Of a stretch of DNA of 64,000 nt, positions 32,601 to 58,500 are shown piece by piece (within the stretch, counting starts at the first letter, position 1; the number at the start of each line of letters is the position of its first letter). A program made the position numbers and the translations under genes. Below the pieces are notes generated by a model. That model worked only from the letters and a program-made list of their open reading frames with translations, made no database searches and was not told the origin of the DNA. This stretch comes from Flectonema sp. DT1601 (taxonomy: Eukaryota), in contig OZ025781.1 in the NCBI GenBank assembly GCA_964019425.1, forward strand, positions 496,001 through 560,000, written 5' to 3'.

Positions 32601-32840
32601 TTTGTGTGATAGGATTCTTCTGCGTTCAACGAAATATCAGGTTGGTCTGAATGTTTTTAATACTTCATTACTTCGAGTACGGATCTGGAAGAGAACAATC
32701 TCATCTTTTTTATCGAACGGTAAACTCGAATCCCTTTTGGGAGAAAAAAAGAAAAAAAAGAAAAAAAGTAAAAAAAATTCTAGCTAAACCAACATTGCGA
32801 ATACTTCCTAACTTCATTGCATTCTTATTTCTTTTTCTTC

Positions 32841-39600: not shown

Positions 39601-39836
39601 CTCCCTGCAACGACTGCAAGCGGAATCCGGATCCGGAACAACGGACTGCCACGAAATGCTGCAACAAAAAGCATCACGGGCCAATTATAAGGACGTTGAC
39701 GAGGAGGGCGAAGCAGCCGACGAAGCATGATACGCAAACCAGCACATCGCTTCTAAAATTAGGTTTCACCAAACAAATGAAACCGAAAGCAGAGGAAACC
39801 CCGGAAAGGGAACCACAGGACAAGGGGTTAACTTAG
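36153..39836 (+). CDS. Chimeric ORF: ubiquitin-like domain + 25-aa LRRs fused in frame to 5'-deleted retrotransposon ORF2 (RT core + Zn-binding tail)
   Basis: Open 1227-codon frame. MQVFV..Ubl and 4 full LRRs are followed from ~36952 by YRLWG..QYGY..DFRKCFD..GILQGCPLS..YADD, identical to the full element. Confidence 0.8.
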   Translation: MQVFVTCPDLGFPAVSVTVGADSVVSDVLMEAAGEWDVDAEEVELLFAGDVLCESERLADHGVGGDSELEMRKKLIRIFGKNWFVDDRKREMLLLWIRDHNTEDLYLDTPTFLEDGCLTVDKRLLPSDAKRISFRHSNSNSTVISQVTSIGDDFLYDCSEITSLDLSSISSVTSIGNHFLFRCSEITSLDLSGLCGVTSIGSSFLSNCSEITSVDLSGLSSVTSIKSSFLSYCSEITSLDLSGLSSVTSIGYQFLSNCSEITSVACFYRLWGCIRMEKDVMEWQEKWAHDGQYGYRKGRSTLDLSWKIALDVEHATLYGEEIAGVTTDFRKCFDLIPHDILLKLVKELGLGDKILRTVTDVYRRLRRRFKFPSGVGEEFATTNGILQGCPLSVVLFNALSSILSKAIEREADVTPGSYADDLTLFGSRTKLQEGVEVVAEFCTLTGQELAPQKCKWFSNRDQGQTNITMGDTTLDFDDSVDIVGCHLSMKGTTKQMGRITEEVLDRARRIRLLPLRYQAKEQIAAASVMPKALFGTALYDPDATRLGLLRRAMATGIFRKLGGKRTKMSHTMGLTLLCKGHCVDPATYIRYNRLLALTRMLPKLTERIRRVWEHLQEHTEATRGPVGLALSTLKELGWEWSTFSVFEGPGGMTEHGRLDAGRWRHDVREACRRFTWNKTIAETRRVNLRGIEAGIDRKETLKVLKEGKGDPYLRGVVKHCLLDNVYTGSMKAGNKNCAHCEEVDDVERTETLEHVNWDCRAYDTIRQEYPQVMLQVRCDWPNCLRLLGIKPDNVELPAGLTGDLQRMFARIRLRRDDYQQLEERRLTVVEYAGNKEPEVVMRYNNKLEKYMPVYTQWPEALGLTLYLALASYLRELKWPRQPDGVGVTFLELAIDFEAYAGVDIPTTVHEGHVAKCTKDRAAGKKADVMCGLMLRLNLVHKHLEGEEQRTFPDYCVGSNKALRPLGAPVLKGLKKRPAFLMGDETVDTIRRTVQEANDGKADKIRFGFETECRHSSEREGRAEKWITAARLFPSKEKDVQLRRELCERGPTRPPPEVVKRPGIAEGQGTMNSTCYGHFKKKCNSCRRAGNTIYQCCHNHHTLGDEDGQIPIWDFCSKHKLTPCAVCIVIGRGSEQCCRNSHHRCRHHEMAPCNDCKRNPDPEQRTATKCCNKKHHGPIIRTLTRRAKQPTKHDTQTSTSLLKLGFTKQMKPKAEETPEREPQDKGLT

Positions 39837-39909
39837 GTTGGCCGAACCAGTGCCTCGTCATCTCACCGTGCTAGCAAGCCTGAATGACAGCACTCAAAAT
39901 GGTACATAT
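36952..39909 (+). mobile_element. Non-LTR retrotransposon copy A (5' 4.8 kb missing)
   Basis: Identical to 48620-51577. Lacks the ribozyme, ORF1 and the endonuclease. Confidence 0.92.
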
Positions 39910-40834
39910 AATTGTTCACAAATCACTTCTCTTGACCTTTCAGGTCTTAGTAGTGTCACCAGTATTGAAAGTTTTTTTTTGTCTAATTGTTCACAAATCA
40001 CTTCTCTTGACCTTTCAGGTATTAGTAGTGTCACCAGTATTGGAGTTTGTTTTTTGTCTAAGTGTTCAGAAATCACTTCTCTTGACCTTTCAGGTCTTAG
40101 TAGTGTCACCATTATTGAAAGTTCTTTTTTGTCTTATTGTTCTGAAATCACTTCTCTTGACCTTTCAGGTCTTAGTAGTGTCACTAGTATTGGAAATCAT
40201 TTTTTATTTCGTTTTTCAGAAATCACTTCTCTTGACCTTTCAGGTCTTTGTGGTGTCACCAGTATTGGAAGTTCTTTTTTGTCTAATTGTTCACAAATCA
40301 CTTCTCTTGACCTTTCAGGTCTTAGTAGTGTCACCAGTATTGAAAGTTTTTTTTTGTCTAAGTGTTCACAAATCACTTCTCTTGACCTTTCAGGTCTTAG
40401 TAGTGTCACCAGTATTGAAAGTTTTTTTTTGTCTAAGTGTTCACAAATCACTTCTCTTGACCTTTCAGGTCTTAGTAGTGTCACCAGTATTGAAAGTTTT
40501 TTTTTGTCTAAGTGTTCACAAATCACTTCTCTTGACCTTTCAGGTCTTAGTAGTGTCACCAGTATTGGAGATTGTTTTTTGTCTGAGTGTTCAGAAATCA
40601 CTTCTCTTGACCTTAGTAGTGTCAACTCTTGGTCTTAGTAGTGTCACCAGTATTGAAAGTTCTTTTTTGTCTAATTGTTCAAAAATCACTTCTGTTGACC
40701 TTTCAGGTCTTAGTGATGTTAAAGAAATTGGTGATGCCTTCTTCGATAATTGCAGTGCCCTGGAATCTGTTCAGCTGCCTGAAAATAATGGCGCTCTCTT
40801 TGAACCGTCTGTGAAAGCTGCGATTAATCATTAA
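39910..40834 (+). pseudogene. 3' half of the interrupted Ubl-LRR gene (~11 x 75-bp LRR units, frameshift near 40612-40635), copy 1
   Basis: CS[EQ]ITSLDLSGLSSVTSIxxxFLxx repeats. The C-terminal cap (…KEIGDAFFDNCSALESVQLP…AAINH*) is in a different frame. Confidence 0.85.
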
Positions 40835-43830
40835 ATGTAAAGTGTTGAATTGATTATTGGTTGTCATGTATTTTATATTTTTAATGTTTTGTTGTCAATA
40901 AAACGTGGTATCAACTTTTACCAAGTGACGAGACCTCGGAATCTATGATTCTCCTCGCGTCTCATCACTTCTCTTCCGATGATATTATTCTGCCAAGTTA
41001 TCTTTTTTTCCCTGAGCGTTTAGTATTACTGTTTGCGATTATACAAAAATCTACGTCTGTTTTCTGAGTAATCTTTTTTTTTGTTCCGACGAAGTCAGAG
41101 AAGAAACTATTCAGATTGAAAGTCGATATTTCTTATGGTCATGATTAATTTTCACCATGCGACAGGATTTTATCTGTGTTCAACGAAATATAAGGCTGAT
41201 CTGAATGGTTTTTTTGTTCTTATTTTGTGTCAAACCCCCGTCCTTGGATCTGACAGGTATTTTTCAGTTGAGTACTTTGATATTAATTTAATTTCAATAT
41301 CAAAATTCCATTTTTGGTAACGTGCCGCTAACAATGAATGAAGAGGGAGAAAAGCTTCTGTTTGGTTGGGTCAACCAACTGAACGTTTCTCCGCCGATAT
41401 CGGGACGGAAATTATTTACAAGATATTCGTAAAATGTATCAAGCGAAAGTTATTTTGTAGTGTTCATTCTTTTATCAGACTTTCAAGCCTTTCCCCGTTT
41501 TCAATAATAAATCTTAATCCCACCCGCCATTCCTCGTAGTGCCGATCCTCCCCAAGAGAAGATCGGCACATTAATGTTCATGAAGCAGATACTCTAAGGC
41601 AGACGTCTACTCGTCGTCAAGGGTAGACCGCCAAGTTGACGACCCTATATGTATATGATTACCGAGTGAATTGTTTTCTATCCTTCATCATCATCTTTCT
41701 TTCATCAGGTGCAAAAAGAATGCAATAGTTGATTACCGAGTACAACAAAGTTTTTATATTTATCACTCTAATTTACTAACTCAGTAGATGTAAATTCATG
41801 TAGCGTTGGTGCATCAAAGTAGTTGAGAATTTGAATCGAAACTGCCTCGAAGATTCTGTTTTTAAGTTGTCAAAGTTTCACCCCAACCTTCGGATTTAAT
41901 AAAAGAGCTGTTTTATTATTTTTAATATAAGCTAACTCATTTGTTTGAAAAAAATGATTTCCAATTAATGTCTTTGCTGAAAAAACCCGTCGATGCCACC
42001 ACCCCGACATTATTTGTTAGGATTATACAGAGCCCCCTCATGTTTTCTAACTGAATTCTGGATAACACTACCATAATTTATGTAAAGTGAGTACTCCGCT
42101 ATTAGTGTTGCTACGAACTAACAATATGGGTAGGCCATCAAATTCTGATGGATAGTTTAGGGGGGGGAGTAGGGGGGGGGTACAAGCATCGAATTTACGG
42201 AGATTTTGGGCACTTTCGGTTTTTTTCCGGAGAACAAGTTTTTTGGGCACCCAAACTATGAAAACTGCAACATATACCCCAAAAATGGGGATTGCGATCC
42301 AAAGAAACAGTTCTTCGGCACTTTAGAGCAAGTCTTTGAAAAATCTCAAAAAGTGTGGACCGTGTGGGTACCTGAGGGGGGTGAAAACAAGGGGTGTGTT
42401 AGGAGGGCTCACAAAAATTACAAGTAATTCCGTGCATTGAGCAATCCATAACCAGGGTTTCCCTCTGAGTTGAGTGGGGAATGAAATGGGAACCCAAGTT
42501 TTATTTTTATCGACCTGATTTGAACCTTAATAATATGCTCCACCAGACCGGGCTTGTTAATTCCCCCATGTCCGATGTTTAGGCTACTGGCCTTCTCTTG
42601 AGCATCCCATGTGCTCAGCTTTTGAAATTCGGCTCGAAGCTGTGCTTCTTTCTGTACAAGATAGACAGAGGACCAATCCTTGGATACAGATGGCAGATTA
42701 GTATTAGACCTTGCTGTCTAGAGGTCTTCCCTGTGAGGACGGGGTGGTACGTTCAGCCCCTGTAGCGCCTCCTGTTGTGCTTGTTCTTGCCAATTTGAAG
42801 AGGGTCGGTGGTCCTGCGTTGATGTGGTAGCCTTTGGAAGTCCGTGTACCTCTGGAATATGTTGTACGTTATCAGTAGAGTAGCATTCACGCCACTGGTT
42901 CCATCAGTTGACCAAGAACTATCAACAACACTGAATAACCTCCCCATCCCTTGAGGGGTGCAGGATGACAACGAACGCCACGGTTGTTAGCTTCATCCCA
43001 CGAACACGACGGTACCAGAGGAAGTATCATGCTGCAGCAATTTGACGGAGGGTGAGGAGGAAGCTGCTGCTTCAAGAAGTCAGGTCACCGACAGATCACC
43101 TGTGAATCCATCAAGTCGGACTGTCCTTCGAGATACAGTTGGTGACTTCGACCCGCTTCTCTTCTGTCTGCGCACCTGCGACAGCTTCAACTATGTCACT
43201 CACTCAGGACTTAGTTAGATCTCTCTGCGCCGATCCCTTCTTGCCGCAATATCTGCAGTGTAGTTACGACTCCAAGACTCTAGGAGTATGTCCCCCTCGT
43301 TTGGGTACAGTTGCAAGCGGATGTGTCTTCCGTACTTCTTCGTATGCCGCATGTACTGAAGTGTCTTGTATGCCCTGCTGGTGAGTATGGTTGGGTCTTG
43401 AGTGATGCCTTGAACGGCTTTTTGGACGGGGCATGTTGCCCTATGTCGCTGTTGCTATCTATGGCACTGCTATTTGATGCACTACCACTACAGCTGTCTT
43501 CAGGCTTATCCCTGTTTGGGGTACAGACGTGGCGCTTTGTCTATTCTGTGAGCCTTCTGTGATCACGATTCAGATACTGGACGTTTTTGGACCCCTTTCT
43601 CACGCGTATCTTGCTTCTGACTGTCCAAGTGCTGTTGAGTGACTTCAGGGATGCCTCGGGAGGTGTTTTCATGCACTCCGGGATCAATGCTCTCTTCCGC
43701 AGAATGACTTTGTGAGCTGCCCTGCAGAACGTCGTTTTCCGCTGCGTTATCCTGCCTCTTGACCTTTCAGGTCTTAGTAGTGTCACAAGTATTGGAAATC
43801 ATTTTTTTGTCTGAGTGTTCAGAAATCACT

Positions 43831-46767
43831 TGGGATCACGACACCTGCCTCCTCGCGGCGGTCCCGGACGACTTCGATAGGGGTCGACAAGACGGTGTCA
43901 AACGCAAGGGATGCGAACAACATCAACACCAACCACCACATCAAGAGCATCCGAACACTGGATGTTTCTTATCCAACAAAGAAAGAAACAGGCTGGCCCA
44001 TGCCTTGAATGGCAATGGTGGAACAAGGAAGGACAGCAGAGACCGACGCCCGCGGGACGACACTCGCGACAGGGACGAGGACCGCACGGACAAGGAAGAA
44101 CGCCGGCTGGCGAAACTCGAGAAGGAAAAACTCGAGTCGCTAGACGAAATCGAGGAAGAGAAGCAGCGGCTGGGGCAACAGAGAATGGCCATGGAGCAGC
44201 ACCACCACCAGAAGGAAACCAACCTTCAAGGACAAGAAAAACAGTTGGAACAGCAACGCCAACACCAACAACAAGAACTGCAAAGTCAGTACCACCAACA
44301 ACAGCAGCAACTGCAAAGCCACCATCAGCTGAAGGAAACGGAAAGTCTCCAGAAGGAGCAAAACCTACAGGCTCAACTCAAAGAGCAACATCAGCACCAA
44401 CAGAAGGAATTGGAGAAGCAATACCGCCAACGACAACAGCAACTGGAAAGCCAGCAGCAGAAGAAGGACGCCGAGTCTGAACAGCAAACGCATCTGACTC
44501 GGTCACAACTACAGAAGGAAAAGGAATCCTTCCAGACGGAGAAGGAACGGCTCCACCTCCAGCTGGATCAGCAGCTAAAGAACGAGAAGGAGCACCTCCA
44601 CCGAAAGCTCAAGGAGCAGATTGGACAAGAAAAAGTCCAACAACAACAAAAGCTCCAACAGAAGGAAGACGAGATCCAACGGCGTGAGGAAGAGGTGAAC
44701 CGAGGACAGCAGCAACTACACCAACAGCAGCAACAACTAGAGCAACAGCAACAGCAATCGCAACATCAGCAACTGGAACTACAACAACAACGGCAACAAC
44801 AACAACAACAGCATCAACAACTGGAACTGGAACAACAACAACTACAACAGCAACTGCAACTGCAACAACATCGACAACCGCAACAACAACCGCAACAGCA
44901 ACCCGTACACTACATGCAACATCAACCGTATGCAACGTACGACACCTACGCCCAGCAGCAGCAGCAGTCTTCCCACTACGAAGGACTACAACAGGAACTG
45001 AAGCGCGAGAGAGAGGAGAAAAGCGAACTACGCGAGATGCTCCGAACTCTCCAACAACAACTGGACGGATTGAGAGAAGAACTCAAGGCCCAACATGCTG
45101 AGGCGAAGAGGCAGCAGGAAACGGCGGGACGGGAAGCGAGAGAGATGCAAGAACGTTTCTTGCTAGAACTCGAAGCGGAACGGGTCCAGATCAGAGGACT
45201 CAACTCGCTGAGAGAAGAGGAAGAGGAACATCAGATGGACACCACCCCTGATCAGGAAGCAAACACGGAAGTGAAGCAAACGCCACCGGTGAAGCTGCCC
45301 CAAGACGGTATGAGGGAGCTGGACGCCTCACGCAAGAAGCTGATGAAAGAAATCAATGAAGGGCAGGTAGCCGGACGATCGGCCATCCAAGAGCAGATGG
45401 TCCGAGAGGCCGGGAGACTGGCGCAGACTCAGAAGAGCTGGGAGAACGCAGCACGCAAGGAGCGATCCAGGGTGGATAACCTCTCGCTGGCACCGGAGTA
45501 TTGGCCAGAGGGAATGGCAATTACGAAGGAGCAGTACGACGCCGGTACAAAGGGAGTACACCTCACCACCAGAGAGGAGGCAAGGAAGAGGATGTCGGGA
45601 ACACCTCCGGGAGCCTGGGAAACGTTATCCCTAGTAACCCTGGAACCACCATCAGACACGGCGCAGAAAGTACAGGTAGTACTTAAGGAGACGACGAGCG
45701 ACGGCGAGAAGAGAATTCTCAAGCAGCTCTGGATGACAACACTGGGAAGAGTGGTTGTACCATCCGGAACAGACGTCGTGCGGACGGAAAGCACGAGGGA
45801 GATGGTTGTCCGAGTGGACAAAAAATGGTCCGGAGAGAAGAGATGGTCGGAAGTGAAGCGCTCCCCGATCAGGGCAACGGAAGAGTTGAGGAAGATGCAG
45901 GGGTATGTCGATACGTACAACCCGCGGATCGGAGACCAGAGCGTCACGGTGATGCTCAGGGTGAAGGTAGCCGAAGTGAAGAACTTCCTCCGAGAATCGG
46001 GGAAGGACGGCGTCTTCACCAAGGAAAAGGATCCGAGAGAAGAACGAGCAGTGAAGGCGGCGGTCATTTGGCTACCGAAGGACGAGACACTCGGAATCGC
46101 TCGGGACAAGGCTGTAGAAGTCGATGGAGGGCTGGGACTTGTGGTAAACGAACACGGACTCGGGCTTCGAGTGACCAGCTGGCAGGAAACGGCGGCGAGG
46201 GAGAAACTGCACCTGCCGGCTAAGCTACCGGAAACAAAGATCACGGGTATCCCGATCGGCACAACCACCGACGAAGCGATCAAGTGGCTGATCACGAAGG
46301 AAGGCTGGGAAGTGAGGAAGACGAAGGAAGGCGTACGGAACGGCATGCGATGGATGGTCGTCCGCGGTCCGGTGAGAACGCAGGAAACCATCACGGTGGA
46401 TGGCGTCCTGTGCATGGTGGAGGCTGGGAAACAGAAGGTGGAAGTCGACCCGAAACGGAAGGAGACCAAACGCCCGAATGCGACACCGACAAAACCGGAG
46501 AAAAGGCGTGACCCGACGGAGGGAACGGGAGGAAAGTGGTACACTCGATTGGAGTTCATCGAGTTTCATGGGAAGAAGAAGGGACAACGCCTATGGTTAG
46601 AAGCCAGCAACCCAACACCAACTACGACGGCACCTACGAAGGCAGCGACCGCAACGACAACAGCGAAAAAGGAGCCCAAGTCGACAAAAAAGAAGGAGAA
46701 CAGCTCAGTGGACGAGAGATTGGACCGACTGGAACGTCTACTGATGGCGTTCATGGAACGGAATTGA
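43831..46767 (+). CDS. Retrotransposon ORF1 (Gln-rich coiled coil, RRM-like C-terminal region); true start unclear
   Basis: Frame is open from the insertion junction to TGA at 46765-46767. First in-frame ATG is at 44185. The frame is preserved across indels in copy C. Confidence 0.85.
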   Translation, partial: WDHDTCLLAAVPDDFDRGRQDGVKRKGCEQHQHQPPHQEHPNTGCFLSNKERNRLAHALNGNGGTRKDSRDRRPRDDTRDRDEDRTDKEERRLAKLEKEKLESLDEIEEEKQRLGQQRMAMEQHHHQKETNLQGQEKQLEQQRQHQQQELQSQYHQQQQQLQSHHQLKETESLQKEQNLQAQLKEQHQHQQKELEKQYRQRQQQLESQQQKKDAESEQQTHLTRSQLQKEKESFQTEKERLHLQLDQQLKNEKEHLHRKLKEQIGQEKVQQQQKLQQKEDEIQRREEEVNRGQQQLHQQQQQLEQQQQQSQHQQLELQQQRQQQQQQHQQLELEQQQLQQQLQLQQHRQPQQQPQQQPVHYMQHQPYATYDTYAQQQQQSSHYEGLQQELKREREEKSELREMLRTLQQQLDGLREELKAQHAEAKRQQETAGREAREMQERFLLELEAERVQIRGLNSLREEEEEHQMDTTPDQEANTEVKQTPPVKLPQDGMRELDASRKKLMKEINEGQVAGRSAIQEQMVREAGRLAQTQKSWENAARKERSRVDNLSLAPEYWPEGMAITKEQYDAGTKGVHLTTREEARKRMSGTPPGAWETLSLVTLEPPSDTAQKVQVVLKETTSDGEKRILKQLWMTTLGRVVVPSGTDVVRTESTREMVVRVDKKWSGEKRWSEVKRSPIRATEELRKMQGYVDTYNPRIGDQSVTVMLRVKVAEVKNFLRESGKDGVFTKEKDPREERAVKAAVIWLPKDETLGIARDKAVEVDGGLGLVVNEHGLGLRVTSWQETAAREKLHLPAKLPETKITGIPIGTTTDEAIKWLITKEGWEVRKTKEGVRNGMRWMVVRGPVRTQETITVDGVLCMVEAGKQKVEVDPKRKETKRPNATPTKPEKRRDPTEGTGGKWYTRLEFIEFHGKKKGQRLWLEASNPTPTTTAPTKAATATTTAKKEPKSTKKKENSSVDERLDRLERLLMAFMERN
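43832..43899 (+). ncRNA. Predicted HDV-like self-cleaving ribozyme at the element 5' end (copy B)
   Basis: P1 GGGAUC/GGUCCC; P2 GACACC/GGUGUC; P3-L3 GCC-UCCUCGC-GGC; P1.1 GG; P4 CGACUUC-GAUA-GGGGUCG; J4/2 ACAA with candidate catalytic C43888. Folded by eye. Confidence 0.88.
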
Positions 46768-49700
46768 CCGGCGGAGGACGGAAGGAACTGGGCGGAGACA
46801 CGGAGACGTCTCCTGCTACAAGCTGGCGACGTTGAGAGGAACCCCGGACCGAGACCACGAATCGATGGGCTCACCGTGGGAACAATCAATGTCACCACAC
46901 TAGAAGGAAAAATAGATGCCATCACAGATCTGAACCTAGATCTGATAGCTCTACAGGAAACTTCTCTGACGGGCCCACAGCAACGCCAGATGAAAAAACA
47001 GCTCGGTGAGAGAGGATGGGAAGCGACGTTCGGGTTAGAGTGCAAATTACTAACCGATGGGCAAAAGACGTGGACGGCGGCGGGAGGCGTGGCCATCTTG
47101 ACGCGCACTGGTACACCGGTGAGAAGGATAAAACACGATCGGCTCGACAACACAGGACGATTCGTACACGCGGGAGTGTCGTACGGAAATGGCAAGGTAC
47201 TGCACGTATTCTCGTTCTACGGAGACGTACGTTCGGCGGTCTACACGGAAGAGTTGATTGCGGAGATGCTCGTGGAAGCAGCAGCTCTGGGTGATGTTCC
47301 CGTATTTATAGCGGGGGACTTCAACGTCGAAACAACGGAATCGCCGGCGCTTCTGTCGGCTTTCGCACACGGACTCTGGATAGATGCCGCCGTCTCGATG
47401 GGAAACATGACACCGACAAGCGAAGCGGGAAAAGGACTTCGTAGAATCGATGCTATTCTGATGAACCGCGGGGCGGCGACAGCAATCTCGAATGACACAA
47501 CGATTCATGTGCATAAGAGTGAGCTGATCCCGACACACAAGCCGGTCATCATTAGAAAGCTCAGCATCTCACGCTACAACGAGAAGGCTCCTAGGCTGAT
47601 AGTACCGAAACAGTTGGATACCTCCGAGACAACGGACCCGAGTGAGGGGAAGGCCGAAAGGCAACTCCACTGGACGCGAGCTGTAGCGACGGAAGATCCT
47701 GACAAGATGCTGGAGGCGCTTGGAGAGATCATCGAAAGATACCTTCTGACGGGAAAGCTGGAGATAAGTAACCCAGCCAAGTACAAGGGACGCGGGAAGA
47801 AGCGTGAGCCTGTGATGTGGACGAACGCGGCGAAACAAGACGGGAGAGGAGCGACGTGCAGGGAAACGCGGAGAAGACTGCAGAAGATACGTGTTCTGGA
47901 GGAAGTGATGAAAATCACAAAGCAACGCGATGGTCCGACGGTGCCGTCCCACGAAGTAATGAAACTCTGGAAAAAATTACGAAAACTCGATCCGACGACG
48001 GGATCCGAAATACCACAGACGGAGGAGCTTCGGATACTACTACAACAAGCGAGACAGGAGCAAGCGATAGAAAGCAAGAAGCTCCGAACTGAACGCATCC
48101 GCATGTGGAAACGGAATGTTGTCGACAATTGGAATGACGACCGCACGAAGGTTTTCCAGTGGATCAGGAACGTCGAGCAATCGAAGACTGTTCTGATGGA
48201 AAAGGCAGATGGAAGCTGGACGGCCAACTGCTCCGAGATGGATGAGGCCATGCACGCGGCATGGGACCCCATACTCAAAAAGTACTTATCAGACCCGGAA
48301 CCAGACTGGATGAAGTTCGAAGAACGGTACAGCAACTACATCGAGGAACACCCGATGCGATGCGAAGATATCACCGGGGAGGACGTTGCAAAAGCCCTCA
48401 GAAGGACTAGCTCGCGCAAAGCAGCTGGGGTAGACGGCTTCAGGATATCGGAGCTCAAGTCGCTACCGGAGGACATGATTCAGATGATAGCGGAATTCTA
48501 CAACATAGTGGAGAGAACACACTGGCCGGAAGCACTTCTCACGGCACTGGTGTCGGCCATACCCAAAGGGGCAGGGACGAAACCACTGGAGCAGAGACCC
48601 ATTACGGTGACATCCGCACTTTACAGGCTATGGGGCTGTATACGTATGGAAAAGGATGTAATGGAGTGGCAAGAGAAGTGGGCTCACGACGGGCAGTACG
48701 GCTACCGGAAGGGGAGATCTACGCTCGACCTCAGCTGGAAGATAGCACTAGACGTGGAACACGCAACTCTCTACGGAGAAGAGATTGCAGGAGTGACCAC
48801 GGACTTCAGGAAGTGTTTCGACCTGATCCCGCACGACATCCTCCTGAAATTGGTGAAGGAATTGGGCCTCGGTGATAAGATCCTGAGAACTGTGACGGAT
48901 GTCTACCGGCGACTCAGAAGGAGATTCAAGTTCCCGAGCGGCGTCGGAGAAGAATTTGCCACCACCAACGGAATACTGCAAGGATGCCCGCTCAGCGTGG
49001 TGCTCTTCAATGCGCTGAGCTCGATACTCAGCAAAGCAATCGAGAGGGAAGCCGATGTGACGCCCGGATCGTATGCGGACGACCTGACATTGTTTGGATC
49101 ACGAACGAAGCTACAAGAAGGCGTAGAAGTCGTTGCGGAGTTCTGCACCCTGACCGGACAAGAACTCGCGCCTCAGAAATGCAAGTGGTTCTCGAACAGA
49201 GACCAGGGCCAGACCAACATCACAATGGGGGACACAACACTGGACTTCGATGACAGTGTCGATATCGTGGGATGCCACCTCAGTATGAAAGGAACCACCA
49301 AGCAGATGGGGAGGATCACGGAAGAAGTGCTCGATAGAGCGAGGCGAATCCGGTTACTTCCGCTCAGATATCAAGCGAAGGAACAGATAGCTGCAGCTAG
49401 TGTCATGCCCAAGGCGCTCTTCGGAACGGCACTGTACGATCCCGATGCGACGCGACTCGGACTGCTGAGAAGAGCAATGGCAACGGGGATTTTCCGCAAA
49501 CTTGGAGGGAAAAGAACTAAGATGTCGCACACCATGGGCCTAACGCTACTCTGCAAGGGACATTGTGTGGATCCCGCGACGTACATTAGGTACAACAGAC
49601 TCCTTGCACTCACCAGAATGCTACCGAAGCTAACTGAGAGGATACGCAGGGTATGGGAACACCTGCAGGAGCACACTGAAGCGACGAGAGGACCAGTCGG

Positions 49701-51504
49701 CCTCGCCCTGAGTACTCTGAAGGAACTTGGATGGGAATGGTCAACTTTCTCGGTCTTCGAAGGTCCGGGAGGGATGACCGAACACGGAAGGCTGGATGCG
49801 GGGCGCTGGCGGCACGATGTCAGAGAGGCGTGCAGGCGTTTCACCTGGAACAAAACAATTGCGGAAACGAGACGGGTAAACCTGAGAGGTATTGAAGCGG
49901 GCATCGACCGGAAAGAGACCCTGAAGGTCCTGAAGGAAGGAAAGGGCGACCCCTACCTGCGCGGAGTAGTGAAGCACTGCCTCCTGGACAACGTGTACAC
50001 TGGCTCGATGAAGGCGGGAAACAAGAACTGCGCGCACTGCGAGGAGGTTGACGACGTAGAGAGGACGGAGACCCTCGAGCACGTGAACTGGGATTGCAGA
50101 GCTTATGACACAATACGACAGGAATATCCGCAAGTGATGCTACAAGTTCGATGCGATTGGCCCAATTGCCTGAGGCTACTCGGCATCAAGCCCGACAATG
50201 TGGAACTGCCGGCGGGGCTCACCGGAGACCTACAACGAATGTTCGCACGGATCAGGCTCCGCAGGGACGACTACCAACAACTGGAGGAGAGACGGCTGAC
50301 GGTTGTGGAATACGCTGGGAACAAGGAACCGGAAGTAGTTATGCGATACAACAACAAACTGGAAAAGTACATGCCAGTATACACCCAATGGCCCGAAGCC
50401 CTTGGATTGACCTTGTACTTAGCGCTTGCGAGCTACCTGAGGGAACTGAAGTGGCCTCGACAGCCAGACGGGGTCGGAGTCACCTTCCTGGAATTAGCGA
50501 TCGACTTCGAAGCGTATGCGGGGGTTGACATACCGACCACAGTCCACGAAGGCCACGTAGCGAAGTGCACCAAAGACAGAGCCGCCGGGAAGAAAGCTGA
50601 CGTCATGTGTGGACTGATGCTAAGATTGAACTTGGTTCACAAGCATTTAGAAGGCGAGGAACAAAGAACCTTTCCCGACTACTGCGTAGGAAGCAACAAA
50701 GCCTTACGTCCACTAGGAGCCCCGGTACTGAAAGGTTTGAAGAAACGACCAGCTTTTCTGATGGGAGACGAAACAGTAGACACAATTCGGAGGACGGTCC
50801 AGGAGGCGAACGACGGAAAAGCTGACAAAATCAGATTCGGCTTCGAGACTGAGTGCAGGCACTCGAGCGAGAGGGAAGGGAGAGCGGAGAAATGGATAAC
50901 CGCGGCACGACTTTTCCCATCAAAGGAAAAAGACGTACAGCTGAGGAGGGAGCTCTGCGAGCGAGGACCGACACGCCCGCCACCCGAGGTCGTCAAGAGA
51001 CCGGGCATCGCGGAGGGACAAGGAACGATGAACTCGACGTGCTACGGGCACTTCAAGAAGAAATGCAATAGTTGTCGACGGGCCGGAAACACCATCTACC
51101 AGTGCTGCCACAACCATCACACTCTGGGGGATGAAGATGGACAAATACCGATATGGGACTTTTGCAGCAAGCACAAGCTTACTCCATGTGCAGTCTGCAT
51201 AGTGATCGGCAGAGGATCTGAGCAATGTTGCAGAAACAGCCACCACCGATGCCGTCACCACGAGATGGCTCCCTGCAACGACTGCAAGCGGAATCCGGAT
51301 CCGGAACAACGGACTGCCACGAAATGCTGCAACAAAAAGCATCACGGGCCAATTATAAGGACGTTGACGAGGAGGGCGAAGCAGCCGACGAAGCATGATA
51401 CGCAAACCAGCACATCGCTTCTAAAATTAGGTTTCACCAAACAAATGAAACCGAAAGCAGAGGAAACCCCGGAAAGGGAACCACAGGACAAGGGGTTAAC
51501 TTAG
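46768..51504 (+). CDS. Retrotransposon ORF2: 2A peptide + APE endonuclease + reverse transcriptase + CCHC knuckle + triple Cys/His repeat
   Basis: APE motifs GTINV, IALQET, GGVAIL, GDFNV and RIDAIL; RT motifs RPITV, DFRKCFD, GILQGCPLS and YADD; C-x2-C...H-x4-C. Same frame as ORF1, no ATG before the APE domain, no RNase H recognised. Confidence 0.93.
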   Translation, partial: PAEDGRNWAETRRRLLLQAGDVERNPGPRPRIDGLTVGTINVTTLEGKIDAITDLNLDLIALQETSLTGPQQRQMKKQLGERGWEATFGLECKLLTDGQKTWTAAGGVAILTRTGTPVRRIKHDRLDNTGRFVHAGVSYGNGKVLHVFSFYGDVRSAVYTEELIAEMLVEAAALGDVPVFIAGDFNVETTESPALLSAFAHGLWIDAAVSMGNMTPTSEAGKGLRRIDAILMNRGAATAISNDTTIHVHKSELIPTHKPVIIRKLSISRYNEKAPRLIVPKQLDTSETTDPSEGKAERQLHWTRAVATEDPDKMLEALGEIIERYLLTGKLEISNPAKYKGRGKKREPVMWTNAAKQDGRGATCRETRRRLQKIRVLEEVMKITKQRDGPTVPSHEVMKLWKKLRKLDPTTGSEIPQTEELRILLQQARQEQAIESKKLRTERIRMWKRNVVDNWNDDRTKVFQWIRNVEQSKTVLMEKADGSWTANCSEMDEAMHAAWDPILKKYLSDPEPDWMKFEERYSNYIEEHPMRCEDITGEDVAKALRRTSSRKAAGVDGFRISELKSLPEDMIQMIAEFYNIVERTHWPEALLTALVSAIPKGAGTKPLEQRPITVTSALYRLWGCIRMEKDVMEWQEKWAHDGQYGYRKGRSTLDLSWKIALDVEHATLYGEEIAGVTTDFRKCFDLIPHDILLKLVKELGLGDKILRTVTDVYRRLRRRFKFPSGVGEEFATTNGILQGCPLSVVLFNALSSILSKAIEREADVTPGSYADDLTLFGSRTKLQEGVEVVAEFCTLTGQELAPQKCKWFSNRDQGQTNITMGDTTLDFDDSVDIVGCHLSMKGTTKQMGRITEEVLDRARRIRLLPLRYQAKEQIAAASVMPKALFGTALYDPDATRLGLLRRAMATGIFRKLGGKRTKMSHTMGLTLLCKGHCVDPATYIRYNRLLALTRMLPKLTERIRRVWEHLQEHTEATRGPVGLALSTLKELGWEWSTFSVFEGPGGMTEHGRLDAGRWRHDVREACRRFTWNKTIAETRRVNLRGIEAGIDRKETLKVLKEGKGDPYLRGVVKHCLLDNVYTGSMKAGNKNCAHCEEVDDVERTETLEHVNWDCRAYDTIRQEYPQVMLQVRCDWPNCLRLLGIKPDNVELPAGLTGDLQRMFARIRLRRDDYQQLEERRLTVVEYAGNKEPEVVMRYNNKLEKYMPVYTQWPEALGLTLYLALASYLRELKWPRQPDGVGVTFLELAIDFEAYAGVDIPTTVHEGHVAKCTKDRAAGKKADVMCGLMLRLNLVHKHLEGEEQRTFPDYCVGSNKALRPLGAPVLKGLKKRPAFLMGDETVDTIRRTVQEANDGKADKIRFGFETECRHSSEREGRAEKWITAARLFPSKEKDVQLRRELCERGPTRPPPEVVKRPGIAEGQGTMNSTCYGHFKKKCNSCRRAGNTIYQCCHNHHTLGDEDGQIPIWDFCSKHKLTPCAVCIVIGRGSEQCCRNSHHRCRHHEMAPCNDCKRNPDPEQRTATKCCNKKHHGPIIRTLTRRAKQPTKHDTQTSTSLLKLGFTKQMKPKAEETPEREPQDKGLT
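46789..46851 (+). other. 2A (StopGo) ribosome-skipping peptide WAETRRRLLLQAGDVERNPG|P (copy B)
   Basis: Exact D[VI]ExNPGP consensus at 46828-46851, preceded by LLxQAG, immediately before APE motif I. Confidence 0.92.
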
Positions 51505-54500
51505 GTTGGCCGAACCAGTGCCTCGTCATCTCACCGTGCTAGCAAGCCTGAATGACAGCACTCAAAATGGTACATATAATTGTTCACAAATCACTTCTCT
51601 TGACCTTTCAGGTCTTAGTAGTGTCACCAGTATTGAAAGTTTTTTTTTGTCTAATTGTTCACAAATCACTTCTCTTGACCTTTCAGGTATTAGTAGTGTC
51701 ACCAGTATTGGAGTTTGTTTTTTGTCTAAGTGTTCAGAAATCACTTCTCTTGACCTTTCAGGTCTTAGTAGTGTCACCATTATTGAAAGTTCTTTTTTGT
51801 CTTATTGTTCTGAAATCACTTCTCTTGACCTTTCAGGTCTTAGTAGTGTCACTAGTATTGGAAATCATTTTTTATTTCGTTTTTCAGAAATCACTTCTCT
51901 TGACCTTTCAGGTCTTTGTGGTGTCACCAGTATTGGAAGTTCTTTTTTGTCTAATTGTTCACAAATCACTTCTCTTGACCTTTCAGGTCTTAGTAGTGTC
52001 ACCAGTATTGAAAGTTTTTTTTTGTCTAAGTGTTCACAAATCACTTCTCTTGACCTTTCAGGTCTTAGTAGTGTCACCAGTATTGAAAGTTTTTTTTTGT
52101 CTAAGTGTTCACAAATCACTTCTCTTGACCTTTCAGGTCTTAGTAGTGTCACCAGTATTGAAAGTTTTTTTTTGTCTAAGTGTTCACAAATCACTTCTCT
52201 TGACCTTTCAGGTCTTAGTAGTGTCACCAGTATTGGAGATTGTTTTTTGTCTGAGTGTTCAGAAATCACTTCTCTTGACCTTAGTAGTGTCAACTCTTGG
52301 TCTTAGTAGTGTCACCAGTATTGAAAGTTCTTTTTTGTCTAATTGTTCAAAAATCACTTCTGTTGACCTTTCAGGTCTTAGTGATGTTAAAGAAATTGGT
52401 GATGCCTTCTTCGATAATTGCAGTGCCCTGGAATCTGTTCAGCTGCCTGAAAATAATGGCGCTCTCTTTGAACCGTCTGTGAAAGCTGCGATTAATCATT
52501 AAATGTAAAGTGTTGAATTGATTATTGGTTGTCATGTATTTTATATTTTTAATGTTTTGTTGTCAATAAAACGTGGTATCAACTTTTACCAAGTGACGAG
52601 ACCTCGGAATCTATGATTCTCCTCGCGTCTCATCACTTCTCTTCCGATGATATTATTCTGCCAAGTTATCTTTTTTTCCCTGAGCGTTTAGTATTACTGT
52701 TTGCGATTATACAAAAATCTACGTCTGTTTTCTGAGTAATCTTTTTTTTTGTTCCGACGAAGTCAGAGAAGAAACTATTCAGATTGAAAGTCGATATTTC
52801 TTATGGTCATGATTAATTTTCACCATGCGACAGGATTTTATCTGTGTTCAACGAAATATAAGGCTGATCTGAATGGTTTTTTTGTTCTTATTTTGTGTCA
52901 AACCCCCGTCCTTGGATCTGACAGGTATTTTTCAGTTGAGTACTTTGATATTAATTTAATTTCAATATCAAAATTCCATTTTTGGTAACGTGCCGCTAAC
53001 AATGAATGAAGAGGGAGAAAAGCTTCTGTTTGGTTGGGTCAACCAACTGAACGTTTCTCCGCCGATATCGGGACGGAAATTATTTACAAGATATTCGTAA
53101 AATGTATCAAGCGAAAGTTATTTTGTAGTGTTCATTCTTTTATCAGACTTTCAAGCCTTTCCCCGTTTTCAATAATAAATCTTAATCCCACCCGCCATTC
53201 CTCGTAGTGCCGATCCTCCCCAAGAGAAGATCGGCACATTAATGTTCATGAAGCAGATACTCTAAGGCAGACGTCTACTCGTCGTCAAGGGTAGACCGCC
53301 AAGTTGACGACCCTATATGTATATGATTACCGAGTGAATTGTTTTCTATCCTTCATCATCATCTTTCTTTCATCAGGTGCAAAAAGAATGCAATAGTTGA
53401 TTACCGAGTACAACAAAGTTTTTATATTTATCACTCTAATTTACTAACTCAGTAGATGTAAATTCATGTAGCGTTGGTGCATCAAAGTAGTTGAGAATTT
53501 GAATCGAAACTGCCTCGAAGATTCTGTTTTTAAGTTGTCAAAGTTTCACCCCAACCTTCGGATTTAATAAAAGAGCTGTTTTATTATTTTTAATATAAGC
53601 TAACTCATTTGTTTGAAAAAAATGATTTCCAATTAATGTCTTTGCTGAAAAAACCCGTCGATGCCACCACCCCGACATTATTTGTTAGGATTATACAGAG
53701 CCCCCTCATGTTTTCTAACTGAATTCTGGATAACACTACCATAATTTATGTAAAGTGAGTACTCCGCTATTAGTGTTGCTACGAACTAACAATATGGGTA
53801 GGCCATCAAATTCTGATGGATAGTTTAGGGGGGGGAGTAGGGGGGGGGTACAAGCATCGAATTTACGGAGATTTTGGGCACTTTCGGTTTTTTTCCGGAG
53901 AACAAGTTTTTTGGGCACCCAAACTATGAAAACTGCAACATATACCCCAAAAATGGGGATTGCGATCCAAAGAAACAGTTCTTCGGCACTTTAGAGCAAG
54001 TCTTTGAAAAATCTCAAAAAGTGTGGACCGTGTGGGTACCTGAGGGGGGTGAAAACAAGGGGTGTGTTAGGAGGGCTCACAAAAATTACAAGTAATTCCG
54101 TGCATTGAGCAATCCATAACCAGGGTTTCCCTCTGAGTTGAGTGGGGAATGAAATGGGAACCCAAGTTTTATTTTTATCGACCTGATTTGAACCTTAATA
54201 ATATGCTCCACCAGACCGGGCTTGTTAATTCCCCCATGTCCGATGTTTAGGCTACTGGCCTTCTCTTGAGCATCCCATGTGCTCAGCTTTTGAAATTCGG
54301 CTCGAAGCTGTGCTTCTTTCTGTACAAGATAGACAGAGGACCAATCCTTGGATACAGATGGCAGATTAGTATTAGACCTTGCTGTCTAGAGGTCTTCCCT
54401 GTGAGGACGGGGTGGTACGTTCAGCCCCTGTAGCGCCTCCTGTTGTGCTTGTTCTTGCCAATTTGAAGAGGGTCGGTGGTCCTGCGTTGATGTGGTAGCC

Positions 54501-55424
54501 TTTGGAAGTCCGTGTACCTCTGGAATATGTTGTACGTTATCAGTAGAGTAGCATTCACGCCACTGGTTCCATCAGTTGACCAAGAACTATCAACAACACT
54601 GAATAACCTCCCCATCCCTTGAGGGGTGCAGGATGACAACGAACGCCACGGTTGTTAGCTTCATCCCACGAGCACGACGGTACCAGAGGAAGTATCATGC
54701 TGCAGCAATTTGACGGAGGGTGAGGAGGAAGCTGCTGCTTCAAGAAGTCAGGTCACCGACAGATCACCTGTGAATCCATCAAGTCGGACTGTCCTTCGAG
54801 ATACAGTTGGTGACTTCGACCCGCTTCTCTTCTGTCTGCGCACCTGCGACAGCTTCAACTATGTCACTCACTCAGGACTTAGTTAGATCTCTCTGCGCCG
54901 ATCCCTTCTTGCCGCAATATCTGCAGTGTAGTTACGACTCCAAGACTCTAGGAGTATGTCCCCCTCGTTTGGGTACAGTTGCAAGCGGATGTGTCTTCCG
55001 TACTTCTTCGTATGCCGCATGTACTGAAGTGTCTTGTATGCCCTGCTGGTGAGTATGGTTGGGTCTTGAGTGATGCCTTGAACGGCTTTTTGGACGGGGC
55101 ATGTTGCCCTATGTCGCTGTTGCTATCTATGGCACTGCTATTTGATGCACTACCACTACAGCTGTCTTCAGGCTTATCCCTGTTTGGGGTACAGACGTGG
55201 CGCTTTGTCTATTCTGTGAGCCTTCTGTGATCACGATTCAGATACTGGACGTTTTTGGACCCCTTTCTCACGCGTATCTTGCTTCTGACTGTCCAAGTGC
55301 TGTTGAGTGACTTCAGGGATGCCTCGGGAGGTGTTTTCATGCACTCCGGGATCAATGCTCTCTTCCGCAGAATGACTTTGTGAGCTGCCCTGCAGAACGT
55401 CGTTTTCCGCTGCGTTATCCTGCC
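48620..55424. repeat. Segmental duplication, copy 2 (pairs with 36952-43756)
   Basis: Offset 11668, near-complete identity. Confidence 0.95.
51578..52502 (+). pseudogene. 3' half of the interrupted Ubl-LRR gene, copy 2
   Basis: Identical to 39910-40834, including the frameshift. Confidence 0.85.
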
Positions 55425-55559
55425 CGTGAGCCTCGTGGCATGGCCGAGCGAGAGCGCTGCTCTTTTTCGTGGCGTGTTCTTGAAGCGGAAACTGATACGG
55501 AAATGGTATATTAGCACACTGCGTGCACAGGGACACACTAAGGTCACCTCTTCTCATTG

Positions 55560-58500
55560 TAAAAAAAAATTATTTGAAGGTGCATTTCACAGGCCTCAAA
55601 ATTGGACCCCCAGGTACCACGCGGTCCACACTTTTTGAGATTTTTCATTCCTTTGCCGAAATCAGCCAAATCGAGGTTTTTTCGGCCCCGAAATCACATT
55701 TTTGGGGGTTCTGATGGGGTCCTGGGTATTTTTTGCCCCCGGGAAGGTTATATTTACCAAAATTCGGAAAAAGTACTTTATCAAAAAGTAAAAAATTTCT
55801 AGCTTAACCAACATTGCGAATACTTCCTAACTTCATTGCATTCTTTGTTCCTGTTGTCGTATTATTGGTTGGGTGTAGTTGATATCTGTTAGAGTTATTT
55901 TATTGTTGTTTCAGGGACCCTTCTGGGAGCTCAGTACATCATTTTATATTTTAGTCCTCTCTCTTTGAATATTAACTCTGGTTACGTTACATTCAGGTTT
56001 GGTTGGTTGTAAGTTGCTTTTTAAAAGTTTAAATATTTTAATTCGAATTCAGAACAAACATAAAATGAAGTTGTCGCTCGCCCTTTTGTCGCTCCCTTGT
56101 TTGGCTGCCGGACTTACGGCCTCGGCCGAAGACGTTGCCCACCTTGCGTTTGACTCGTTCAAGAGCCAGTACAACAAGAAGTACGTCAGCGAGGTTGAGG
56201 AAGCGAAGAGATACGAAGCCTTCAAGGCGTCGCTCGACAGAGTTGCGGCCTCTGGAAACCCAACTCATGGAATCACGAAGTTCAGTGACATGACTCCTGA
56301 GGAGTTCAAGGCAACGTACTTGAGCGCCCGTCCTCTTCAGAAGAGCAGCCCACCTGTTGCGGAATGGGATGGTGAGTGCACTGCTTGCAAGAGATTCCCT
56401 GAACTCAGCAACCTGAAGAACGCAACCTCATTCGACTGGACTACCAAGGGAGCAGTGACCAAGGTGAAGAACCAGGGACAGTGTGGATCTTGCTGGAGTT
56501 TCGGAACTACCGGAGACATCGAGGGGACCTGGTTCTTGGCTGGAAACGACCTCACTTCCCTCTCTGAGCAAGAGTTGGTGTCGTGTGACAAGACCGACGA
56601 TGGCTGTGGTGGAGGTCTTCAAGAGACAGCTTTCGCTTGGGTGATCAAGCAGGGAGGACTGACCACTGAAGCTAACTACCCATACAACTCAGGTGGTGGC
56701 CGTGTAGATGCTTGCGAGGAGGCGAAGAAGAAGCCAATCGCCGCTTCAATCAAGACCTGGTACCAGGTGTCGAAGAACGCTGGCGGGGAATCGAAGATTG
56801 AATCGCAGCTTCCCCACGTTGGACCGATCACCATCGGAATCAACGCCACCCCTATGCAGGACTACAAGGGTGGAGTTGACAACCCAAGATTGTGCTCTGG
56901 ACTTCAGCTCGACCACGCTGTGTTGATTGTTGGATTCGGAACTGACAACGGTGTTGACTACTGGAAGATTAAGAACTCATGGGCAGCTGACTGGGGAGAG
57001 GAGGGTTACTACAGAATCGTTCGTGGTCACAACAAGTGTGGTCTGGCGAACGACGCTGTCCACAGTGTTGCCGGTAAATAGGCTGTGGGGTTGTATTATA
57101 ATTATTTCGTGTTTACACGTTTTCTCATCCATCTTATTTAGTGTGAAATGTTTGACGAAAGAACAACAACCAGTGAAAATGGATGTAAGTTCAGAACATG
57201 GCAGCCATTTCTTATATAAATAGTTCTAGAATGACTGCCACCTATTCCTCTCTTGTCTAATATAGGAATAGCCTGTGTGTCGTATCGCACAGCATATTAT
57301 CTATACTTTTATTTTTGAATCTTATAAAGAGGTTTTTGGACATCGATTCTGTTCAAGTCCTGCTTACGAGTGAATGATGTATCTTGTTTGTGCTATTAAA
57401 TGGTGACTGGAGTTCTTCTACAAAAGCATCTGGTGCCTAACTGTTCGATATTCACGTACTTTTCCTTGTTTAAAGAAGTGTCTGTTGTCAAGGATTAGTA
57501 AACAAAGAATCTTTGAACTGCTCTCTGTATTGTCGTGGTGGTCTTAACCGTATAGCATTATTGTATTCCATCAAACAGTTAACCGAACCACACACAAAAT
57601 GAAGTTGTCGCTCGCCCTTTTGTCGTTAAGGGAAGTAGCACAGTACTGAGGAGGTGGATGAAAGATTGCTCTTGCGGAATTACAGAATTCAATTATTAAG
57701 TTATCGATTCTGTGTTTTCTAAGTCGGAATGTGTTCTTAAGTTAGTTAATTTATTTATTATTTACTGCAACAGGATGTATGACAACAATCAAAACTGTTC
57801 TTTAGTTGCCTTTGCTAGACAGATACCTCAATCCCGTATAATTTACAGGGGAAATTCGGTGTATTTTGGGCCACTTTTTGTTGGCCTTTTTTTTGGTGCA
57901 TTTTGGGGCTGGGTAAGGGGAACGGTCCGAAGAAAAGATTATTTTTAATCATAGCCCGAAACCAACTTGTTTGTTGTCCTACGAACTTTTGCATTCGATT
58001 GAATTTTCCCGCCCTCTCCCCTTCTTTTGACTGATAACCATTAATACTAACACATTGGTATTCCGCGTTCCCTGATATATTTATATAGGGGGACTGTGTT
58101 AAATGGTAAAAGAAATAACCATGTTGACGTGGTTCCCTTGGCTGAGAAGGGCAAACGCGATGAGTAGGACAGGCCAGACACCGCAGTGTCTCCCTTGCTT
58201 TCTTCGCTGAAGAGGGCTGGGTAAGGGGAATGGTCCGAAGAAAAGATTATTTTTAATCATAGCCCGAAACCAACTTGTTTGTTGTCCTACGAAATTTTGC
58301 TTTTTTTTTGATTGTATTAATACTAACTCATTTGTTTGAAAAAATGATTTCCAATTAATGTCTTTGCTGAAAAAACCCGTCGATGCCACCACCCCGACAT
58401 TATTTGTTAGGATTATACAGCCCCCTCATGTTTTCTAACTGAATTCTGGATAACACTACCATAATTTATGTAAAGTGAGTACTCCGCTATTAGTGTTACT

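Follow-up and report, generated by a model that had tools for sequence, protein, structure and literature searches.

A diplonemid retrotransposon fused in frame to a leucine-rich-repeat coding unit, with two AUG-poor ORFs, a same-frame UGA, a 2A motif and a predicted 5′ ribozyme

How does a retrotransposon make its proteins when neither of its two open reading frames (ORFs) has a usable AUG? The question is raised by an element in a 64,000-nucleotide stretch of Flectonema sp. DT1601 (contig OZ025781.1, forward-strand positions 496,001–560,000; hereafter the window, whose numbering is used throughout), which an earlier note, made from the letters alone, had described as a promoter-less parasite of a leucine-rich-repeat (LRR) gene family. 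To judge from its sequence, the element is an intact two-ORF retrotransposon of diplonemids without long terminal repeats (non-LTR), carrying an APE endonuclease and a reverse transcriptase (RT). Its full-length copy in the window, copy B, and the host DNA on both sides are laid out as follows.

43757–43831, plus strand: one 75-bp BspA-type LRR unit, the 5′ flank of copy B; upstream copy of the target duplication at 43812–43831
43832–51576, plus strand: copy B, full-length APE-RT non-LTR retrotransposon; 3′ end uncertain by 3 nt
43831–46767, plus strand: ORF1, 978 codons, ending in TGA; first base host-derived
45796–46446, plus strand: predicted RRM-like folds of ORF1 (model residues 97–178 and 238–313)
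46765–46767, plus strand: the single in-frame TGA between ORF1 and ORF2, next base C
46768–46851, plus strand: 28-codon Met-free linker closing with the 2A motif GDVERNPG/P, read from sequence
46768–51504, plus strand: ORF2, open for 1578 codons, TAG stop at 51502–51504
46870–47544, plus strand: APE endonuclease domain (Pfam Exo_endo_phos)
48583–49209, plus strand: reverse transcriptase domain (Pfam RVT_1, E 2e-23)
50029–50097, plus strand: CCHC zinc knuckle, a sequence motif
51040–51345, plus strand: three C-x2-H-x4-C-x2-C...CC..HH repeats, 3′ of the CCHC knuckle
51505–51576, plus strand: 3′ untranslated region, 72 nt, without poly(A), directly adjoining host LRR DNA
51577–52502, plus strand: host LRR gene, 3′ half, with the downstream copy of the target duplication at 51577–51596

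All the parts that the earlier note had named are present: ORF1 and ORF2 share one frame throughout and are separated by one TGA, the 2A motif precedes the APE domain by six codons, the ORF2 tail holds three Cys/His repeats, and the insertion lies in a protein-coding 75-bp LRR unit. The end of the element had been placed at 51577, which is a host base; the last element base is 51576, or possibly 51573. The three Cys/His repeats also occur in the Flectonema and Diplonema papillatum relatives. Pfam yielded no RNase H in the element (E≤0.1), while the same library detects one in the relative P0012, and it detected no second endonuclease; copy B has no Josephin domain. Against PDB, the RT matched L1 (E 8e-17) and R2 (E 3e-10) only.

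ORF1 consists of a Gln/Glu-rich, coiled-coil-like half followed by the predicted domains resembling RNA-recognition motifs (RRMs). In the model of its C-terminal part (mean predicted local distance difference test score 68; 70–90 across the folded part), the best RRM match had a Z of 8.2 and a root-mean-square deviation of 2.2 over 63 residues, and the best Foldseek match was RRM1-3 of raver1 (E 7e-4); such middling Z values indicate the fold only. As modelled, ORF1p looks like an ordinary coiled-coil plus RRM ORF1 protein. An atlas search with ORF1 gave scores of merely 0.80–0.81, and ORF1 bears a weak likeness to metagenome locus L011 (E 0.002 pairwise, 0.11 by profile) and none to L008. The Gln-rich part (44600–44900 in copy B; 60730–61120 in copy C, described below) varies in length and sequence between the two copies.

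The first step towards an answer is the insertion site, which can be compared with that of a second copy.

59959–64000, plus strand: copy C, running off the window; same 5′ junction, TGA and 2A as copy B; top pair of ribozyme helix P2 is C-A
58872–62981, plus strand: unbroken ORF from a host ATG (58872) through a ubiquitin-like domain, 8.5 LRR units and ORF1 of copy C

Copy C lies in a second ubiquitin-like plus BspA-LRR gene and is 98% identical to copy B over most of its length. The junction with the LRR unit falls on the same base in copies B and C, and the target duplication measures about 20 bp (20–23, three bases being host or element), because at the 3′ junction of copy B the LRR unit resumes 20 bp earlier; the duplication is imperfect, with 3 of 20 bases differing. 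Beyond the window, where copies are known from gene calls alone, a search with ORF1 returned two clusters of the element's family with 8 members in all. Three of them (P0236, P0242 and P0247) reach the 5′ end and are fused to different LRR genes, all at the same codon; the other five are partial, with no flank visible. In P0242 the junction residue is R in place of W, which is why we assign the first base of the junction codon to the host and begin the element at 43832. A related element in Flectonema neradi, whose ORF1 core is 36% identical to that of the element, is represented by P0241 and P0267, two isoforms of one transcript in which LRR units are fused at the same register and frame; because these are transcripts, they indicate co-transcription of host and element in that species. 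At every visible 5′ junction (B, C, P0236, P0242, P0247 and the F. neradi relative) ORF1 is in the host frame, and in P0242 and P0247, as in copy C, a single ORF from a host ATG spans the LRRs and continues into ORF1.

From these sequences, insertion is almost certainly specific for one register of the LRR unit, and the proposal of the earlier note that a multicopy LRR gene family is used site-specifically holds at five junctions plus that of the F. neradi relative. A looser preference, like that of ingi and RIME for trypanosome RHS genes (PMC7563717, as far as the excerpt extends), with most copies elsewhere, would have a precedent, and it draws some strength from gene calls being biased towards in-frame junctions and from the lack of a whole-genome census. 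We consider it improbable: the register is the same at all five full-length junctions that are visible and at that of Flectonema, and 0 of the 8 ORF1 members look like a full-length copy in non-coding DNA, for none begins at the first ATG as such a copy might.

The second step concerns the start of ORF1, whose first in-frame ATG is codon 119 (44185). The stretch ahead of it is translated, we conclude, because it shows protein-level selection and contains a shared motif. Between copies B and C, the ratio of non-synonymous to synonymous change (dN/dS, from uncorrected counts) is 0.11 over codons 50–117 (22.5 synonymous, 8.5 non-synonymous changes) and 0.18 over codons 20–117, and a motif around codons 48–64 is common to Flectonema and to a set of sister ORF1 families (P0237–P0240, 55–63% identical, and members P0248–P0265; 22 members in total). 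This in-frame host junction, with ORF1 translated upstream of its first AUG, is the most unusual point of the element, and one that the earlier note did not mention. Translation from the host AUG is the source that we narrowly favour over ribozyme-driven non-AUG initiation, while rating it a little below an even chance. According to the competing explanation, a possible one to which we give somewhat less credence, ORF1 is read from cleaved, uncapped RNA by AUG-independent initiation, as at an internal ribosome entry site, within the first ~50 codons, and the frame match is incidental. The HDV-like ribozymes of R2 and L1Tc reportedly support initiation without a cap (PMC6765202, in the portion available), selection is weaker at codons 20–49 (dN/dS 0.42) than at codons 50–117, two of the three frames are open through the ribozyme region, and neither a 2A nor any other release site was seen between host LRR and ORF1. 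Yet the Flectonema relative keeps frame and register despite deep divergence and a different 5′ length, the indels between B and C within the first 350 nt preserve the reading frame, and the sister families, which insert elsewhere, have an ATG within the 5′ core (an internal Met in P0259) where the element's family has none.

Several truncated sister-family copies follow poly-Lys (A-tracts) rather than LRR, and as far as these sequences go an own AUG seems to accompany non-LRR sites and the lack of one to accompany in-frame LRR sites. No ORF2 matching the sister families turned up in the RT searches; these families may be non-autonomous. A crude pyrimidine count gave no good candidate for a trans-splice acceptor before ORF1 or ORF2.

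The third step is the 5′ end itself.

[quoted passage not shown]

The ribozyme-like fold that the earlier note had placed at nucleotide +1 begins at 43832. In copy B, the nested double pseudoknot of P1–P4 and P1.1, the conserved L3 and a C in J4/2 are all present: P1 pairs 43832–37 with 43860–65 (6 bp), P2 43840–45 with 43894–99 (6 bp), P3 43847–49 with 43857–59 (3 bp) and P4 43869–75 with 43880–86 (7 bp); L3 spans 43850–56 (7 nt), P1.1 is CC:GG with its GG at 43866–67, and the candidate catalytic C is 43888. A descriptor of this fold matched once on both strands of the window (128 kb), at 43831/43832; it had no match in 24.06 Mb of shuffled element sequence or in 217,466 shuffled versions of the first 100 nt. 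Rfam RF00094 was placed at the same spot, below its cut-off (16.5 bits versus a gathering score of 50, E 8.1), and plain RNA folding, which cannot model pseudoknots, did no better than shuffles (z −0.05). The Flectonema relative is identical at 14 of its first 19 residues, versus 36% for the ORF1 core, and its swap of D4/V23 to V4/D23 entails, by the genetic code alone, one compensatory A-U to U-A change in P2. The sister ORF1 families open with the same 5′ core, read in another frame, and a core shared across frames points to constraint on the RNA, not on the peptide, at least at the level of sequence.

The first 59 nt of copies B and C contain no difference, versus 60 differing columns in the next 295 nt; we give this little weight because the rest is 98–99% identical and the copies look mosaic. 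(Positions 60–350 are ~80% identical and ORF2 99%.) No ribozyme core was found upstream of eight scanned metagenome loci, most of which lack a 5′ end, and an exact 30-nt pattern of the core had 0 matches in metagenome contigs. Taken at the sequence level, the predicted HDV-like fold is very probably a real ribozyme.

The last step is the route to ORF2. The first ATG of ORF2 lies at 46990 (residue 75), downstream of the conserved APE N and E motifs (residues 38–65), and the interval from the TGA to the 2A is free of ATG in all frames. With its end at 46851, the 2A motif, LLLQAGDVERNPG/P, fits D(V/I)ExNPG/P, is preceded by a helix-like tract and is near-identical to that of Flectonema P0003, although the motif by itself is reported to be insufficient for ribosome skipping (PMC3708506, in the part consulted). 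Six of the eight ORF1 cluster members terminate at the same residue, the remaining two being cut earlier, and Flectonema ORF1 terminates at the matching place. Among the 15 listed ORF2 members (of 22 in the cluster), eight begin just past the 2A and none is longer; the cluster member P0033 is identical to copy B. That a single-ORF element was disabled by mutation to TGA and then multiplied by duplication is very improbable. P0191, in which an ORF1 domain, an OTU-like stretch, APE and RT form one uninterrupted ORF, does show the wider group to include an unbroken form; the stop, however, is common to copies that differ at 7–24 ORF2 residues, and dN/dS is 0.08–0.09 on either side of it. Reassignment of UGA was considered as well and rejected, as TGA closes 2 of the 9 host ORFs (in one of the two cases it may be intronic).

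Relatives at 13 metagenome loci, 6 of which show the region upstream of APE, give a wider view. Four of the six (L001, L002, L007 and L011) have a same-frame upstream ORF ending in TGA, with 32, 244, 79 and 1236 codons visible, respectively, and L001 and L007 have no Met ahead of the 2A-like motif; in L005 and L008 the upstream ORF is in a different frame from ORF2. We lean towards production of ORF2 by UGA readthrough, on sequence grounds the simplest reading together with the 2A. Termination followed by AUG-independent reinitiation behind the UGA, with the 2A then trimming and down-tuning ORF2, strikes us as less likely, even though the start of ORF2 is described as open for most two-ORF elements and SART1 is reported to use stop-start coupling (PMC3894237, in part), the five TGA sites share no readthrough context and the 27 codons past the stop suffice for a 2A alone. 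Reinitiation requires no shared frame, yet four of the six relatives have one with a TGA, and P0191 lacks the stop altogether. In L011 (2–3709), a further 2A-like motif, GEATHPGP, occurs near residue 379 of the long ORF1, besides the one before APE.

Joined together, these steps suggest an answer that combines in-frame LRR targeting, use of the host transcript and AUG, UGA readthrough with 2A and the predicted ribozyme, and to which we assign a probability of roughly 45%. It builds on what the sequences show: a fixed register and frame, selection on ORF1 ahead of its first AUG, the want of an AUG before the APE motifs, a fixed stop and an intact 2A motif. The APE domain would nick the LRR unit at positions ~20 bp apart, and the element would insert in the host frame and share the mRNA of the LRR gene. 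Translation begun at the host AUG would yield a ubiquitin-like/LRR-ORF1 fusion, whose RRM-like domains would let it coat the RNA. A small fraction of ribosomes would pass the UGA, and 2A skipping would then release ORF2p with a uniform Pro N-terminus. A slow ribozyme would spare enough uncut RNA for translation and later trim off the host part, freeing the template. A broader and more doubtful proposal is that the lineage abandoned its own start codons altogether, targeting a single codon of a host protein repeat and relying on host transcript, cap and AUG to make ORF1 as a host fusion, on gag-pol-style readthrough with the 2A for release and on a slow ribozyme as the timer that turns message into template.

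Several points weigh against the combined answer. A fixed site yields a fixed frame, meaning that in-frame copies count once per lineage rather than independently; a frame match has a prior of 1 in 3, and gene calls favour junctions with an open upstream frame. A single independent 3′ junction was seen, copy B is now cut off from its host ATG, and the absence of a release site between host LRR and ORF1, mentioned above, belongs here too. The ribozyme descriptor was built on a consensus and composed after the sequence had been viewed; copy C fails it, because of a C-A mismatch that tops and weakens P2 (P0236, P0242 and P0247 have the B-type residues at this site), and P1 has only 6 bp unless a host U is counted. 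In R2, cleavage exactly at the 5′ end is reported to yield variable junctions, and retention of target sequence on the template uniform ones (PMC3774820, as excerpted). The junctions here are uniform, unlike those of R2 with such cleavage, and together with the imperfect duplication this may mean that cleavage at +1 is slow or partial. As to ORF2, four of six loci in the same frame has a chance probability of ~0.10 by hand calculation, and two of the four upstream ORFs (those of L001 and L007) are truncated where the contig stops. At the five sites, neither a common readthrough motif nor a strong stem is visible after the TGA. Readthrough with 2A is not universal even in the closest clade, because the ORF2s of Flectonema open with a Met of their own and a Josephin-like stretch, and an intact 2A is missing from P0002 and P0004.

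The interpretation in the earlier note thus stands for LRR targeting, for the conserved HDV-like fold and for the fixed stop and 2A, while its recoding proposal is rivalled by AUG-independent reinitiation, and the self-cutting and the lack of a promoter that it proposed stay conjectural, the 5′ end of L1Tc serving as ribozyme and promoter alike. A comparison of further copies, which it had asked for, found the TGA and 2A kept in copy C and the LRR register at all visible junctions, with the weaker P2 in copy C.

Each part of the element has a precedent, be it in L1Tc, in R2 or in the RHS hot spot. With L1Tc and ingi it shares, by published accounts consulted in part, an HDV-like ribozyme at the 5′ end (predicted here), whose role is to release the element from polycistronic transcripts (PMC4035085, PMC12278014), a 2A directly before APE, an APE-RT build and a euglenozoan host (PMC3708506), and with ingi and RIME a preferred site in a multicopy protein-coding family, the RHS genes, which insertions are described as turning into nonsense or frameshifted pseudogenes (PMC7563717). 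Ingi elements have a single ORF, encode RNase H, end in poly(A) and carry a promoter within their first 77 nt, the 5′ end of L1Tc being both ribozyme and promoter (PMC12278014). The element differs in its 978-codon ORF1 with predicted RRM-like folds, its lack of RNase H and poly(A), its ~20-bp duplication and its in-frame junction; in fold type, its 5′ end matches the Pr77 hallmark of L1Tc/ingi. The comparison with L1Tc drawn in the earlier note is apt for mechanism and fails for membership: the 2A before APE is there, and the single ORF, RNase H and poly(A) (the last judged from one independent 3′ junction) are not, and we rejected assignment to the Ingi clade on the presence of ORF1 and the lack of RNase H and poly(A).

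R2 resembles the element, as interpreted here, in site specificity, co-transcription with the target, a 5′ HDV-like ribozyme and the lack of a normal cap/AUG route, as reported in the available sections of PMC3774820 and PMC6765202. It differs in having a single ORF, a restriction-like endonuclease and a non-coding 28S rDNA target, and R2 membership was rejected since the element has APE, two ORFs and an LRR target. Target-specific APE elements of the R1/Tx1 type share two ORFs, APE and a strict multicopy target (PMC4640811, in part), all of which the element has. Targets of sequence-specific elements listed in that source are rRNA, spliced-leader, tRNA and snRNA genes, transposons, microsatellites and telomeres. 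Most 2A-bearing elements are described as lacking ORF1, with few CR1 exceptions (PMC3708506, PMC3894237, each in part); CR1-26_BF, CR1-53_BF and CR1-1_LG combine ORF1 with a 2A at the start of ORF2 (PMC3708506), and an element of Cordylochernes has a 2A between ORF1 and ORF2 domains (PMC13405545), whereas the accessible parts of these reports mention no same-frame stop before the 2A, 5′ ribozyme or target specificity.

The closest RTs (35–48% identical) belong to APE-RT elements of Diplonema papillatum, D. japonicum, D. ambulator, Eupelagonema and Polarella, in which a 2A-like motif, a Cys/His tail and a related ORF1 domain are common features. None of the Diplonema, Eupelagonema or Polarella elements, which carry automatic names only, was seen to target LRR genes. 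For D. papillatum, the genome paper states, in the part available, that rigorous element identification is still to be done (PMC10161547). A literature search covering open-access papers, with Repbase, Dfam and most subscription papers outside it, found no report of LRR-targeting or diplonemid elements of such build, of same-frame readthrough or of in-frame host fusion, and the accessible portions of PMC12846837 and PMC3747384 added nothing on coding-repeat targets. What is new, as read from the sequences, is the fixed in-frame targeting of a host coding repeat combined with two ORFs that both lack a usable AUG.

To our knowledge, known target-specific non-LTR elements reside in non-coding repeats, a rule that is extended here by the targeting of a fixed codon in a protein-coding repeat, also found in the F. 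neradi relative. The element would provide a new site-specific APE endonuclease, as predicted from sequence, and the truncation or fusion of member genes could give it an influence over a large LRR gene family. Because junction, stop and 2A are short and defined, translation of non-LTR ORFs without AUG becomes testable, with close relatives that have their own AUGs as natural controls.

Among named organisms, Flectonema neradi and Diplonema species supply the closest relatives, in keeping with a diplonemid as the most likely host. In an RT tree made by a quick method (73 rows, no named clade references; L011 dropped for want of a match and L001 omitted as frameshifted), the window element, two Flectonema elements and the ENA family P0004 formed one group with an SH-aLRT support of 100, which lies away from P0017, a relative of Ingi-like architecture. 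P0017 (cluster of 37) has a single ORF of the order Met-2A-APE-RT-RNase H-like, and its 2A is nearly the same as that of the element, though the RTs are 25% identical. P0002, P0003, P0006, P0282 and P0191 have Josephin-like or OTU-like deubiquitinase stretches ahead of APE (weak Pfam Josephin in P0003, E 0.012; PF02338 in P0282), while the targeted host genes start with a ubiquitin-like domain. A Josephin protease together with both APE and a restriction-like endonuclease is what we take to be the hallmark of Dualen/RandI. The Josephin link of Dualen/RandI is noted in PMC13405545, as far as that source was available.

The surroundings of copy B contain a large duplication and a truncated third copy.

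36153–36948, plus strand: 5′ half of the host ubiquitin-like plus LRR gene, upstream of copies A and B
36952–39908, plus strand: copy A, 5′-truncated, at the start of a 6805-bp repeat of the 3′ half of copy B plus flank

The duplicated segments, 36952–43756 and 48620–55424, differ at one position, and each takes in the element's 3′ half together with 3.85 kb of the flank downstream of it; copy A is accordingly no independent 3′ junction. The upstream segment sits in the LRR array between copy B and the 5′ half of its host gene, and because it separates the two, copy B has one upstream LRR unit only. It may have arisen by 3′ transduction or templated DNA insertion, or be an assembly error. The duplication also joins host LRR in frame to RT (ORF 36093–39836). 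Sequencing run X1 has contigs that match copy C without a difference over both the 5′ junction and the TGA; copy C is real, yet these contigs are no independent evidence. The X1 contigs contained no B-type 5′ end and no 3′ junction of either type, and run X2 has short pieces only.

A tandem unit of 99.4% identity, 32838–36948 and 55557–59668, holds a papain-family protease gene and a ubiquitin-like/BspA-LRR gene, and the element is present in both LRR genes. Two stretches that follow the LRR gene downstream, 42580–43756 and 54250–55557, are richer in GC and have no ORF of 150 codons on either strand. Elsewhere in the window, a plus-strand ORF of 1807 codons with 297-bp tandem repeats occupies 6841–12264.

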